A DNA stretch of 64,000 nt from Escherichia coli (GCF_044324785.1 NZ_CP172127.1); one strand, 5' to 3'; positions 1 through 12,220 are shown, numbered from the stretch's first letter. The notes: generated by a model from the letters alone, not told the origin. Numbers and translations: made by a program.

Positions 1-198
1 TTTGATATGCCTTGCTTTAGTATCCGTCAATACTGCCATACGCTAATTCCTGTTACTCTGGTATGCCATTCAGTATGCCATTAGTCTCTCACTTCACTAA
101 GAATACATTAGATAACATCGGACAGAAAAAATTGTAATGCATTGTTTATAATAAGGTTATATAACACTCCCGGATTAAGTCAGATTTATTTCAGGCGG

Positions 199-373: not shown

Positions 374-433
374 TATCCCCCCCTCACCGCCATATTTAAA
401 GAAGAGCTCGTACGAAAGTACGAGTTTTTTTTC
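374..433 (+). repeat. Direct repeat copy B: exact 3'-terminal ~18 nt of tRNA-Ser(GGA) (ATCCCCCCCTCACCGCCA) followed by rho-independent terminator hairpin and T8 run
   Basis: 3' acceptor/CCA end matches the serW/serX tRNA-Ser end as I remember it; upstream 70 nt do not resemble a tRNA body (no GGTGAGG 5' acceptor strand, no T-loop). Confidence 0.6.
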
Positions 434-610
434 GCATTTTATCTGCCTGTACGGCAGTGAACTCAAATACTACACGTTTAGTCCGTTATTAATAAAGCAA
501 AGCCATCTCATTTTCCTGCTACCACCCTTTTTTATCCTTACCTTCCCGCAGCACTAATTATCAACAACTTACCATCATCATCAAAAAAAGGGTCTGAACC
601 TCCTCCACCC

Positions 611-651
611 CATAAACAAAAAGTCCGTAACCTCTTTCGAGATTACGGACT
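611..651 (-). terminator. Rho-independent terminator of clpA
   Basis: Hairpin agtccgtaa...ttacggact just past the clpA stop, followed on the minus strand by a T-rich tract. Confidence 0.6.
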
Positions 652-675
652 TCACCAACCTACCTAACAATTAGA

Positions 676-2952
676 TTAATGCGCTGCTTCCGGTTTGTGC
701 TTTTGCGCACTCTGGAATCCGTAAGTCAGCTCATTTTTCTCTTTATCCAGCGCGACGGTGACCTGACCGCCGTCCACCAGCGAACCAAACAGCAGTTCGT
801 TGGCGAGCGGTTTTTTCAGGTTGTCCTGGATGACACGCGCCATCGGACGTGCGCCCATTGCCCGATCGTAACCTTTCTCGGCCAGCCAGTTACGCGCTTC
901 CTGGCTCACTTCCAGAGAAACACCTTTCTGATCCAGCTGAACCTGCAACTCGACGATGAATTTATCCACCACCTGATGGATCACGTCGGTTGACAGATGA
1001 TCGAACCAAATAATGTTGTCGAGACGGTTACGAAACTCCGGCGTAAAGATCTTCTTGATCTCTTCCATCGCATCGGTGCTGTTATCCTGGTGGATAAGAC
1101 CAATCGATTTACGCTCAGTTTCCCGTACCCCGGCGTTGGTGGTCATCACCAATACCACGTTACGGAAGTCCGCTTTGCGTCCGTTGTTATCGGTCAGCGT
1201 ACCGTTGTCCATCACCTGCAACAGAATATTGAACACGTCCGGGTGCGCTTTCTCGATTTCGTCCAGCAGCAGCACCGCATGTGGATGCTTGATGACCGCA
1301 TCAGTCAGCAAACCGCCCTGATCAAAACCAACGTATCCCGGAGGCGCACCAATCAGACGGCTGACGGTATGGCGTTCCATATACTCGGACATATCAAAGC
1401 GCAGAAGCTCAATGCCCAAAGCTTTCGAAAGCTGTACCGTCACCTCTGTTTTCCCGACCCCGGTAGGGCCGGCAAACAGGAACGAACCGACCGGTTTATG
1501 TTCGTGACCTAAACCTGCACGCGCCATCTTAATGGCTTCAGTCAGCGCCTCAATGGCTTTATCCTGACCGAAGACCAGCATTTTCAGGCGATCGCCGAGG
1601 TTTTTCAGGGTATCGCGGTCACTCTGAGAAACACTCTTCTCTGGAATGCGCGCAATACGGGCCACCACGGACTCAATATCCGCCACATTAACGGTTTTCT
1701 TGCGTTTGCTTACCGGCATCAGGCGTGCGCGAGCGCCCGCTTCGTCGATAACGTCAATGGCTTTATCCGGCAGATGACGATCGTTAATGTATTTCACCGC
1801 CAGCTCTACCGCTGCACGCACCGCTTTTGCGGTATAACGCACGTCGTGGTGCGCTTCATACTTCGGTTTCAGGCCATTGATGATTTGAACAGTTTCTTCG
1901 ATCGACGGTTCAGTAATATCAATTTTCTGGAAGCGACGCGCCAGAGCACGGTCTTTCTCGAAAATGTTGCTGAACTCCTGATAGGTTGTCGAACCAATTA
2001 CGCGAATTTTACCGCTGGAGAGCAACGGTTTGATTAGGTTAGCCGCATCGACCTGGCCACCAGACGCTGCACCCGCACCGATAATGGTGTGGATCTCATC
2101 AATAAACAGGATGCTGTTAGTGTCCTGCTCCAGCTGCTTGAGCAACGCTTTAAAACGTTTTTCAAAGTCGCCGCGATATTTTGTGCCCGCTAACAGAGAA
2201 CCGATATCGAGAGAGTAAATCGTACAGTCAGCCATCACTTCCGGCACATCGCCCTGAACAATTCGCCAGGCAAGACCTTCCGCAATCGCGGTTTTACCGA
2301 CACCAGATTCCCCCACCAGCAGCGGGTTGTTTTTACGGCGACGGCAGAGAACCTGAATAGCACGCTCCAGCTCCTTCTCACGACCAATCAGTGGGTCGAT
2401 TCCGCCCACACGCGCAAGCTGATTCAGGTTCGTCGTGAAATTCTCCATACGTTCCTCCCCACCAGCTTGTTCTTCGCTGTTTGGCTGGCTGCCAGGATCA
2501 GAAGACTGTGTCGGCTCGTCTTTACGCGTGCCATGAGAGATAAAGTTCACCACATCGAGACGGCTGACTTCATGTTTACGCAACAGATATGCCGCCTGCG
2601 ACTCCTGTTCGCTAAAGATAGCGACCAGAACGTTTGCACCGGTAACCTCATTGCGACCGGAGGACTGGACATGGAAGACCGCACGTTGCAGTACACGCTG
2701 AAAACTCAGCGTCGGCTGTGTGTCGCGCTCCTCTTCACTGGCAGGCAGAACGGGTGTGGTTTGTTCAATAAAGGCTTCCAGTTCCTGACGGAGCGCAACC
2801 AAATCCACAGAACACGCTTCCAGCGCCTCCCGGGCAGATGGGTTACTGAGCAGCGCCAGTAACAAGTGCTCGACGGTCATAAACTCATGACGGTGCTCGC
2901 GCGCTCTGGCGAAAGCCATATTTAAACTGAGTTCCAGTTCTTGATTGAGCAT
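676..2952 (-). CDS. clpA: ATP-dependent Clp protease ATP-binding subunit ClpA (758 aa)
   Basis: Two AAA+ modules with Walker A motifs GESGVGKT and GPTGVGKT; start [10 protein letters not shown] as in K-12 (ORF track extends 5 codons upstream). Confidence 0.96.
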
Positions 2953-9743: not shown

Positions 9744-10168
9744 ATCCCCTCCAGAAATATGTGACTTATCCTTTACGCTGGCAGTATAACGGGAAAGGCC
9801 TTACTAATACGTGATGACATCACATTTAAGCATGGCAAATGTCTGAAAAATGAGCGAATAATCGCGTTATACTCCCTCTTGCTGATAAGCCTGCAAAAAC
9901 AACAAAATCAAATAATTAGCATGATAAATTATTTTTTATTACGCCTAAAGGATTAAATCTTTCGCTTGCACTACACTGTCAATCAGACAAATGACTATAT
10001 GGGGCAACCCGCTGTTGCCCTAAATCAAATTTACTGGATTTATTTATCTGGCGAATGATTTGCCTTCGTTTTTAAAATAGCCGCGCATTATTTCCGTCGT
10101 CACTTTTTTACGACGACCCTATAAAACGACCATATTTTTCACAGGGTCAATTTTTAATTGAGGTGGAT

Positions 10169-10864
10169 ATGTTCAGAAAATTAGCAGCTGAATGTTTTGG
10201 TACTTTCTGGCTTGTTTTTGGTGGCTGTGGTAGTGCCGTACTGGCCGCAGGCTTCCCGGAATTAGGCATTGGTTTTGCCGGCGTGGCGTTGGCGTTCGGT
10301 CTGACCGTTCTGACGATGGCCTTTGCTGTTGGTCATATTTCTGGTGGTCATTTTAACCCGGCGGTCACTATTGGTTTATGGGCTGGCGGACGTTTCCCGG
10401 CAAAAGAAGTCGTTGGCTACGTAATTGCCCAGGTTGTCGGCGGTATTGTTGCGGCGGCGCTGCTGTATTTAATTGCCAGTGGTAAAACGGGTTTTGACGC
10501 GGCAGCCAGCGGTTTTGCTTCTAACGGTTATGGCGAGCATTCGCCAGGCGGTTATTCCATGCTTTCCGCGCTGGTAGTTGAACTGGTATTGAGTGCAGGT
10601 TTCCTGCTGGTGATCCACGGCGCAACCGACAAATTCGCTCCTGCTGGTTTTGCGCCGATCGCTATTGGTCTGGCCTTAACCCTGATTCACTTAATCAGTA
10701 TTCCGGTGACTAACACTTCTGTTAACCCGGCGCGCAGCACCGCGGTTGCTATCTTCCAGGGCGGCTGGGCATTAGAACAACTGTGGTTCTTCTGGGTGGT
10801 GCCAATTGTCGGCGGTATTATCGGTGGTCTGATTTACCGGACCCTGCTGGAAAAGCGTAATTAA
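10169..10864 (+). CDS. aqpZ: Aquaporin Z (231 aa)
   Basis: Both NPA motifs present (HFNPAVT and SVNPARS); start [13 protein letters not shown]. Confidence 0.96.
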
Positions 10865-10899
10865 TTAGCATTGGCATTTTATCTGCCCTGGTTGTTTTA

Positions 10900-11160
10900 T
10901 CTTCGACGTTACAAACCGCACGGGTGTTGGTGGCGTCAAAATCGCTGAAGCGTTCCCCGAAGGCCGGGGCAGCCCACATGGATGTGGGCTGAGGGCGCGT
11001 CTTACAGGACGTTACCTCGCGCCCGACCCGGTAGCCGAAGGGGATAAGCTGAAGGCACCGCGCAGCGGCGATTTTGTTCGCCAGAGCCCGGGGGTGCAGG
11101 GGGCGGCGGCGACTGGCCGCCCCCTGCGCGCTCCCTGCGCCAGTGGCTTTATATGGCATT
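10900..11160. repeat. GC-rich cluster of stem-loops in the aqpZ–lysO intergenic region (REP-like or structured RNA candidate)
   Basis: Perfect hairpins cagcccaca/tgtgggctg (10970-10991) and gcagggggcgg/ccgccccctgc (11096-11127) in ~260 bp of high-GC non-coding DNA. Confidence 0.4.
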
Positions 11161-11320
11161 GCACATGAAAGGAGCGCAACAATGCTAAACACTCATATAG
11201 AATTAAAAATCCCCCTCTGATGCATAACATTTCCTTTTAATTGCAACTTTACTCGTCCTTCCGCTTTCAGTAGTGTGTCATCGCGCATTTCGACTTCATC
11301 TTTGCAAGGACTGGGTTTTC

Positions 11321-12220
11321 ATGTTTTCTGGGCTGTTAATCATTCTGGTTCCCCTGATTGTGGGTTACCTCATTCCGCTTCGCCAAAAAGCTGCATTAAA
11401 AGTTATTAATCAGCTATTAAGCTGGATGGTTTACCTTATTCTCTTTTTTATGGGTATCAGTCTGGCGTTTCTCGATAACCTCGCCAGTAACCTGTTGGCG
11501 ATTCTGCATTATTCTGCCGTCAGTATTACCGTTATTTTACTGTGTAATATTGCCGCCCTTATGTGGCTGGAGCGAGGCCTGCCATGGCGCAACTACCACC
11601 AGCAAGAAAAACTCCCGTCGCGTATTGCGATGGCGCTGGAGTCGCTAAAACTGTGCGGCGTAGTAGTGATTGGTTTTGCCATTGGCCTGAGTGGACTGGC
11701 TTTCTTACAACATGCGACCGAAGCCAGTGAATACACCTTAATTCTGCTACTTTTCCTCGTCGGTATTCAGTTGCGCAATAATGGCATGACCTTAAAGCAG
11801 ATTGTCCTTAATCGCCGGGGAATGATTGTCGCCGTGGTGGTGGTTGCCAGTTCATTAATTGGTGGTTTAATTAACGCCTTTATTCTTGATCTTCCCATCA
11901 ATACCGCGCTGGCAATGGCCTCCGGTTTCGGCTGGTATTCTCTTTCCGGTATTTTATTGACCGAATCTTTTGGTCCGGTAATCGGGAGCGCGGCGTTTTT
12001 TAATGATCTGGCCCGTGAGCTGATTGCAATTATGTTGATCCCTGGGCTGATTCGCCGCAGCCGCTCTACCGCACTGGGCTTATGCGGTGCGACGTCGATG
12101 GATTTCACCCTGCCCGTTCTTCAACGTACTGGCGGGCTGGATATGGTCCCGGCGGCAATTGTTCACGGTTTTATTCTTAGCCTGTTAGTGCCGATCCTCA
12201 TCGCCTTTTTCTCTGCATAA
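11321..12220 (+). CDS. lysO: Lysine exporter LysO/YbjE (299 aa)
   Basis: Polytopic membrane protein starting MFSGLLIILVPLIVGYL; 299-aa form. Confidence 0.9.
   Translation: MFSGLLIILVPLIVGYLIPLRQKAALKVINQLLSWMVYLILFFMGISLAFLDNLASNLLAILHYSAVSITVILLCNIAALMWLERGLPWRNYHQQEKLPSRIAMALESLKLCGVVVIGFAIGLSGLAFLQHATEASEYTLILLLFLVGIQLRNNGMTLKQIVLNRRGMIVAVVVVASSLIGGLINAFILDLPINTALAMASGFGWYSLSGILLTESFGPVIGSAAFFNDLARELIAIMLIPGLIRRSRSTALGLCGATSMDFTLPVLQRTGGLDMVPAAIVHGFILSLLVPILIAFFSA

Follow-up and report, generated by a model that had tools for sequence, protein, structure and literature searches.

The question raised by the region between aqpZ and lysO in this Escherichia coli chromosome (GCF_044324785.1, NZ_CP172127.1) is what kind of element a cluster of GC-rich hairpins between two genes represents. 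The stretch analysed here, referred to as the window, comprises 64,000 nucleotides of one strand. A preliminary description made from the sequence alone had pointed out the cluster, and had offered as explanations a different repeat family, a structured RNA, a leader for lysO or a recombination scar.

The GC-rich cluster of strong stem-loops is real. G+C content is 65.9% at 10900-11160, 65.0% in the element delimited below (10909-11182) and 63-75% at the peak around it (100-nt windows), compared with 50.6% for the whole window. The + strand folds with a minimum free energy of -140 kcal/mol, compared with -116.8 +/- 5.1 kcal/mol for 200 dinucleotide-preserving shuffles, none of which was as low (z -4.54), and for the - strand the value is -122.5 kcal/mol (z -3.2 against shuffles). 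The two perfect hairpins already picked out are present and slightly longer than was described, with arms of 10 and 12 nt that are each 100% complementary. The lack of terminator T-tails was borne out by a terminator scan, which found 0 sites combining a G+C-rich hairpin with a T-tract in 10700-11450, and a promoter scan of the same interval found no sigma-70 promoter-like sites. A minus-strand ORF of 124 aa had been suspected of being a GC artefact, and this suspicion holds: it has no Pfam match, and the longest open frame switches strand and frame between homologous copies of the element, therefore a protein-coding reading was rejected. The features that define the locus are as follows.

10163-10864, + strand: aqpZ, the upstream neighbour (ORF; annotation of the near-identical strain 104)
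10818-11192, - strand: ORF of 124 aa, no gene (no Pfam match; frame and strand unconserved)
10909-11182, + strand: TRIP1a repeat, equivalent to RRS-lysO, the sense, G4-bearing strand being the + strand of the window (identity to the K-12 copy; multi-copy; literature)
11090-11109, + strand: published G4-forming 20-mer of RRS, GGGGGTGCAGGGGGCGGCGG (exact, the only match in the window; 0 expected by chance)
11322-12220, + strand: lysO (ybjE), the downstream neighbour, with its ATG at 11322 (ORF; annotation)

The cluster is the chromosomal repeat TRIP1a, since renamed RRS-lysO (RRS, replication risk sequence), which belongs to a small family of intergenic elements, ~270 bp long and with 65% G+C, in Escherichia and its relatives. 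We consider this reading very probable as a whole, including a mechanism that would be carried over from the K-12 literature. The element is already known, having been catalogued in 1999, surveyed in 2024 and functionally characterised between 2023 and 2026.

Correspondence to TRIP1a and RRS-lysO

TRIP1a was described by Rudd (1999), and Li et al. (2024, PMC10888264) later surveyed 6725 genomes for it; RRS-lysO is one of two replication risk sequences studied by Pham, Cox, Goodman and colleagues (PMC10287960, PMC10592627; Kusi-Appauh et al. 2026 preprint). The match was made from literature on the flanking gene names, after a megablast search of 5426 complete E. coli genomes with the sequence between aqpZ and lysO had shown about 275 bp of it (10909-11182) to be repeated.

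The element shares its locus, sequence, size, G+C content and G4-forming 20-mer with the published one. Its place between aqpZ and lysO is confirmed by the flanking ORFs and annotation. The K-12 aqpZ-lysO TRIP1a/RRS sequence aligned to 10909-11182 with 91.6% identity over 275 bp, the K-12 copy being oppositely oriented relative to the genes. The two RRS of K-12 have a common block of 271-272 bp, with 94.1% mutual identity, which maps to 10918-11182 of the window. G+C content, at 65%, is inside the 62-65% reported for TRIP1 (Li et al. 2024, PMC10888264), and the 20-mer found at 11090-11109 is the one reported as the G-quadruplex-forming sequence of RRS (Pham et al. 2023, PMC10287960; 2024, PMC10592627). 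Around the element, positions 443-51937 of the window (~51 kb) are colinear with the opposite strand of K-12 (925,772 descending to 876,500), except for an inverted segment and one 2.5-kb insertion. The copy in the window differs from that of K-12 in being inverted together with ~40 bp on each side, and in being without the K-12 aqpZ terminator.

TRIP1/RRS was found in 5425 of the 5426 complete E. coli genomes, at 1-9 places in each (median 3-4, maximum 8-9). A known multi-copy repeat was the outcome that the preliminary description had named as refuting it, and this is what the search has revealed, with a literature going back to 1999. As in the published family, there are partner copies at dusC and putP, lying in yohP-dusC and efeU-putP and matching the published loci; five types, a to e, have been described, each at a fixed locus (Li et al. 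2024, PMC10888264). Of the explanations offered at the outset, a different repeat family was thus the right one, and the family is TRIP1, later RRS, which is neither REP/BIME nor ERIC. A recombination scar as the origin of the element is unsupported; the TRIP1 family is nonetheless a documented recombination substrate, with 156 rearrangements on record, mostly between TRIP1a and TRIP1c (Li et al. 2024, PMC10888264). RefSeq carries no annotation of the element in K-12 or any other record inspected, and a correct label matters because genome scans will otherwise go on rediscovering it.

Some copies lie outside the five types of Li et al. (2024). TRIP1/RRS-like copies were found at asmA-yegH (L025 2501-2786) and tauA-mmuM (L026 2501-2752), the former representing a divergent subfamily with 81-85% identity, in which the core is invariant and the closing stem and G-rich hairpin have been rebuilt. 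At a coverage of at least 80%, the asmA-yegH copy occurs in 1485 of the 5426 genomes. An exact-pattern scan of 100,044 species genomes found the family only in Escherichia, Pseudocitrobacter and one metagenome-assembled genome (MAG), a scan which was biased by its demand for both loops. Copies in Klebsiella (K. pneumoniae and K. aerogenes; L029-L036) came later, via BLAST on plasmid records, including 13 places in one 5.37-Mb K. pneumoniae record filed as a plasmid; PLSDB holds several such chromosome-sized 'plasmids'. All seven Klebsiella copies in annotated loci lie between convergent genes. A 2.8-kb metagenome-assembled contig from a 'Proteobacteria bacterium' (L009) has two inverted copies, at 1-152 (-) and 408-693 (+), ~290 bp apart.

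Individual copies have also been altered. One copy in E. whittamii (L020 8458-8744) has an insertion of ~95 nt within domain 1 (see below), and in one E. coli genome IS1 is inserted beside the dusC copy (hit H133). In strain GU2018_CL13 the aqpZ-lysO copy (L028 375-730) has the orientation seen in the window and an internal deletion of 124 bp bounded by 18-nt direct repeats, which suggests slippage or recombination between these repeats. It is also missing 11 bp in the G-rich hairpin, and mimics TRIP1b, which has been described with a 125-bp internal deletion (Li et al. 2024, PMC10888264). One hit (H6) that had been read as an 'empty site' is an internal-deletion derivative instead, and the first reading was rejected.

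A fold maintained by compensatory substitutions

To describe the fold, 26 copies were collected from E. coli loci, four other Escherichia species, two Pseudocitrobacter species, one MAG and Klebsiella (eight copies). The parts of the element in the window are listed below, all on the + strand.

10937-11076: domain 1, a long closing stem around nested helices and two GGA-loop hairpins (inverted repeat I1; arms 10937-10952/11061-11076; minimum free energy and consensus structures; compensatory changes)
10952-10969: first copy of an 18-nt imperfect direct repeat, D1 (partner 124 bp away; the pair brackets domain 1)
10970-10991: hairpin 1, CAGCCCACAUGGAUGUGGGCUG, with loop AUGGAU at 10978-10983 and GGA at 10980-10982 (perfect inverted repeat)
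10993-11024: hairpin 2, GGGCGCG...CGCGCCC, with inner loop UUACA-GGACGUUA and GGA at 11007-11009 (minimum free energy and consensus structures)
11076-11093: second copy of D1 (the interval between the copies is the one deleted in GU2018_CL13)
11096-11127: G-rich perfect hairpin of 12 bp with an 8-nt loop, GGCGACTG, overlapping the G4 motif (inverted repeat I3; arms 11096-11107/11116-11127)
11128-11177: 3' domain, a helix of GCGCTCC (11128-11134) with GGAGCGC (11171-11177) around a variable spacer (helix 14; 3 compensatory pairs)

Comparison of these copies has shown that the predicted multi-helix fold of TRIP1/RRS is maintained by compensatory substitutions. A consensus fold built on 21 copies contains 71 pairs, with 98.3% of cells paired, compared with 41-49% when the partner columns were slid by 1-3 positions. 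In the same alignment 13 pairs have changed on both sides (0-5 when slid) and the covariation score is 0.157 (0.02-0.05 when slid), and with the Klebsiella copies added the number of compensatory pairs rises to 17. The G4 strand is the better folder of the two, with a consensus energy of -92.3 kcal/mol, compared with -76.9 kcal/mol for the other strand. The count of 113 G:T cells to 7 A:C cells also favours it, a comparison biased by the fold having been predicted on that strand. The near-invariant core, together with compensated stems across three genera, argues for purifying selection on the fold.

The loops of the two hairpins in domain 1 are among the most constant parts. Hairpin 1 has arms of 10 complementary nt (10970-10979/10982-10991), which realistically means 9 pairs and a UGGA loop, and its sequence is unchanged in all 18 copies from Escherichia and Pseudocitrobacter; the copies in Klebsiella have the same loop, with the pair next to it switched from A:U to G:C. 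Loop 1 reads AUGGAU in all 26 copies. The loop of hairpin 2 follows the pattern A-N-GGA-Y across copies, the N being variable or deleted, as it is in the window. It reads CAGGAC in the window, AGGGAU in K-12, and ACGGAC, AUGGAC, AAGGAC or AGGGAC in Klebsiella, where an inner pair of hairpin 2 has also gone from A:U to G:C. Both loop patterns are fixed across genera while the pairs adjoining them switch.

The G-rich hairpin also covaries, with C:G replaced by A:U at two pairs in dusC-type copies and the stem rebuilt in the asmA-yegH subfamily, and its loop GGCGAYTG is kept. Where the runs of five G are broken, in that subfamily and in K. aerogenes, the hairpin is retained by compensatory changes. 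Judged from covariation, selection on the hairpins and GGA loops has been no weaker than that on the G-runs, a finding that bears on the published model of G4 on the lagging strand.

Within the 3' domain, the motif AAAGGAG was considered as a ribosome-binding site and rejected, as it is the 3' arm of the GCGCTCC/GGAGCGC helix and the next ATG is unconserved among copies. The tiny ORFs that follow it (MLNTHIELKIPL in the window, MMNQHITTS in K-12) were rejected on the same grounds.

Orientation and the replication-gap model

The copy in the window lies in the opposite orientation to that of K-12, as part of a larger inverted segment.

10868-11216, no strand assigned: segment between the conserved flanks, inverted whole relative to K-12 (349 bp; 387 bp in K-12; the interior aligns only as the reverse complement)

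On either side of it, up to 10867 and again from 11217 onwards, the window and K-12 align without a change of orientation. The aqpZ terminator lies within the 387-bp segment of K-12, and has no counterpart in the window (0 terminator-like sites). The + strand of the window, which corresponds to the - strand of K-12, shows a negative GC skew in 13 of 15 8-kb windows. The inversion, the colinearity and the negative skew together lead us to infer that this strain has the G4 strand as its leading-strand template. The K-12 arrangement, with G4 on the lagging-strand template, is not that of the window; this is a state of orientation and does not define membership of the family. Both orientations of TRIP1a have been reported, the 'reverse' form in 1255 of 4703 genomes (Li et al. 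2024, PMC10888264). The whole arrangement of the window occurs, at a coverage of at least 80%, in 895 of the 5426 complete genomes, including O157:H7.

The dusC copy varies too. It is flipped relative to K-12, where its G4 is on the - strand in agreement with what has been published, in 2000 of the 5426 genomes, including O157:H7 and ST131 (L003 2498-2772; L037 3122-3389). In O157:H7 the lysO and dusC copies are both flipped, so the pair is still inverted, and both G4 strands would be on leading-strand templates.

In K-12 the consequences of RRS for replication have been studied in detail. In vitro the G-rich strand is a block to Pol I, II and IV, and in the cell it slows down Pol III (PMC10287960, PMC10592627). 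With this strand as lagging-strand template, the replisome leaves behind a gap, which is taken up by SSB and RecA; the RecA/SSB peaks depend on RRS, and the effect moves with the element to new chromosomal sites (RRS papers). In single-molecule experiments a gap of ~700 nt forms at essentially every encounter with G4 on the lagging-strand template, and a gap of ~330 nt at ~66% of encounters with G4 on the leading-strand template (RRS papers); in vivo, an inverted RRS with G4 on the leading-strand template loses the RecA/SSB peak (Pham et al.). K-12 needs at least one RRS copy unless a 200-kb region is amplified, and deleting or inverting both RRS alters genome-wide supercoiling as seen by Psora-seq (RRS papers). 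RRS-lysO lies ~650 kb from dif in K-12, paired with the inverted copy near dusC, and the RRS authors have proposed that the copies, placed where the Ter macrodomain ends, work as a topological relief valve (RRS papers). For the element in the window, a similar distance from dif and a dusC partner, both outside the 64 kb analysed, are implied solely by colinearity with K-12.

For K-12 the literature describes the mechanism as follows. On unwinding of the duplex at the fork, the G-rich strand rapidly forms a G-quadruplex and/or very stable hairpins, and so becomes a block to the lagging-strand polymerase. The replisome then skips ahead, leaving a single-stranded gap of ~0.3-2 kb to be occupied by SSB and RecA, and, with the lysO and dusC copies flanking the Ter macrodomain, such transient gaps are proposed to serve as topological relief valves. 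With the element flipped as it is in this strain, fewer and smaller gaps would be expected (in vitro at ~66% of encounters, and in vivo without a RecA/SSB peak). Since G4 on the leading-strand template loses the published peaks, the gap-triggering role may be weak or different here, and the flipped element would still meet the requirement for at least one RRS.

The configuration with G4 on the leading-strand template was built artificially by Pham et al., and the window would carry it naturally. If so, between a sixth and a third of natural E. coli, O157:H7 among them, have the G4 of lysO and/or dusC on the leading-strand template, as judged from the same reasoning. Natural strains that often carry a laboratory-engineered 'inverted' configuration are ready material on whether orientation matters. 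It appears that neither Li et al. nor the RRS authors have linked the orientation polymorphism with the RRS model; RRS is unmentioned by Li et al. (2024, PMC10888264), and the RRS papers call position and sequence highly conserved.

The frequency of flipped copies (895 of 5426 genomes at lysO, 2000 of 5426 at dusC) sits uneasily with selection for the lagging-strand orientation. In addition, conservation is higher in the two GGA loops than in the G4 region, and a pure G4 model does not explain either this difference or the keeping of the G-rich hairpin where the runs of five G are broken. The conserved A-N-GGA-Y and GGCGAYTG loops would point to a sequence-specific ligand of RRS/TRIP1. One speculative extension, which we regard as unlikely, is that RRS/TRIP1 is more than a G-quadruplex, being a folded three-domain element, preserved by compensatory substitutions, with such a ligand, either CsrA on a transcript or a protein reading the folded single strand, and that the lagging-strand gap model describes one of its two natural states.

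Alternative roles and related systems

An Rfam scan at permissive E-values gave as its top match TwoAYGGAY (RF01731, clan CsrB/RsmB), full-length over 10925-11089 on the G4 strand, with 30.7 bits (E 0.0099), below the gathering threshold of 43 bits. Scores were 30.6 bits for the K-12 TRIP1a and 28.4 bits for an ST131-type dusC copy (L003), the Klebsiella copies had zero matches to this model even at E <= 10, and an nhmmer profile of the family did not match the five Psychromonas TwoAYGGAY sequences of Weinberg's alignment (E 0.5). The rest of the scan was noise from G+C-rich miRNA-like hairpins, a lysine riboswitch or leader being absent from it. TwoAYGGAY (Weinberg et al. 2010) has been proposed to be a CsrA-binding RNA, and is multi-copy in the gammaproteobacterium Psychromonas. 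The two have in common a long closing stem round two hairpins with AYGGAY-like loops (AUGGAU; ACGGAC or AUGGAC in Klebsiella), the closing P1 stem expected of TwoAYGGAY being present at 10937-10952/11061-11076 with compensatory changes, as well as multiple copies in a gammaproteobacterium and a match that spans the full model on the same strand. However, the score is sub-threshold, loop 2 of the window is one base short (CAGGAC), the Klebsiella relatives score nil, there is no primary-sequence similarity to the Psychromonas members, and RRS has two extra domains, the G-rich hairpin and the 3' helix. The link therefore appears to be one of architectural resemblance, short of membership.

It is against this background that a role as RNA has to be weighed, in which the element or its domain 1, as a 3' UTR or small RNA, would use two high-affinity CsrA-type GGA-loop sites as a decoy like CsrB/RsmZ or TwoAYGGAY, titrating CsrA or stabilising neighbouring transcripts. 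Such a role would be compatible with one as DNA, and we think it unlikely. In its favour are the full-length TwoAYGGAY match on the G4 strand, to a family proposed to bind CsrA and itself multi-copy in Psychromonas, the fixed loops beside pairs that switch from A:U to G:C, and the many G:U pairs tolerated on the G4 strand only. The GGA loops also resemble RUACARGGAUGU, the CsrA SELEX consensus. Most copies lie directly downstream of genes, often between convergent ones, and the haplotype of the window has no terminator between aqpZ and the element. However, the TwoAYGGAY score is under its threshold, with the Klebsiella copies unmatched and the Psychromonas comparison at E 0.5, promoter-like sites are lacking in 10700-11450, and orientation relative to neighbouring genes is unconserved. 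The rows listed in the Potts et al. (2017) supplement give 'No' for CsrA CLIP against both ybjE and dusC, with aqpZ and yohP not among them, and as gene entries they are uninformative for intergenic RNA. As to a structured RNA, the fold is backed by covariation, which cannot separate RNA from single-stranded DNA and, like the tolerance of G:T, fits the folded DNA strand equally. A further reading, a cis-regulator acting on the neighbours as a lysO leader or riboswitch or as an aqpZ terminator or 3' stabiliser, is highly improbable. In this strain the sense strand points the same way as aqpZ and lysO, and the canonical aqpZ terminator of K-12 is missing, so aqpZ transcripts probably run into the hairpins of the element. 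In K-12, however, the element is antisense to both genes, and copies elsewhere adjoin unrelated genes, which together exclude a lysO leader or aqpZ terminator; the leader proposed in the preliminary description is also unsupported by any riboswitch or leader family match in the Rfam scan. A terminator-like T-tract is absent from 10700-11450, and the apparent Shine-Dalgarno sequence is a helix arm followed by an unconserved ATG.

The other possibility is that TRIP1 is for the most part selfish or neutral, an interspersed repeat of the REP or MITE kind that spreads or is shuffled by recombination, and whose importance would be as a rearrangement substrate and not as a programmed replication element. 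This we consider improbable, although several properties agree with it: 1-9 copies per E. coli genome and 13 places in one chromosome-sized K. pneumoniae record, loci beyond the published five (asmA-yegH and tauA-mmuM), polymorphic orientation at lysO and dusC, internal-deletion variants between 18-nt direct repeats, and the documented rearrangements, mostly of TRIP1a with TRIP1c. However, convincing terminal inverted repeats or target-site duplications were not found, an associated transposase is not known, each type keeps to a fixed locus, and the near-invariant core with stems compensated over three genera is a sign that the fold is under purifying selection. Such compensation, together with fixed loci and with the conditional essentiality in K-12, which requires at least one copy, is not easily squared with a purely selfish repeat.

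Near the ends of the element there is a perfect 9-bp inverted repeat, TTAGCATTG/CAATGCTAA, at 10865-10873/11180-11188, the only end-proximal pair, which may be due to chance. A mobile element was considered from it and rejected, as the repeat is off the inversion boundaries.

Two other known systems invite comparison. REP/BIME elements (including naRNA4/REP325) are likewise G+C-rich, palindromic and intergenic, are often found after convergent genes and have been implicated in chromosome topology. However, their sequence is unrelated, the TRIP1 unit is ~270 bp as opposed to ~35 bp and far less numerous, and a link to a RAYT-type transposase is not known for it; the REP-derived naRNA4 model had zero matches in the element, though it matched REPs in neighbouring loci. 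The pilE G4 of Neisseria gonorrhoeae, cited by Pham et al. as the sole analogue, is also a bacterial G-quadruplex that leads to replication gaps or nicks with a programmed consequence. It differs in being short, in needing a cis sRNA transcript and in serving antigenic variation, and is without a multi-helix fold or a repeat family.

Elsewhere in the window, the insertion of ~2.5 kb relative to K-12 lies at 21647-24195, in the ybjQ/ybjP intergenic region. It contains an ORF of 600 aa (21796-23598, - strand) with pentapeptide-repeat Pfam matches to PF00805 (25.9 bits, above the cut-off) and PF13599 (32.5 bits, below the cut-off).
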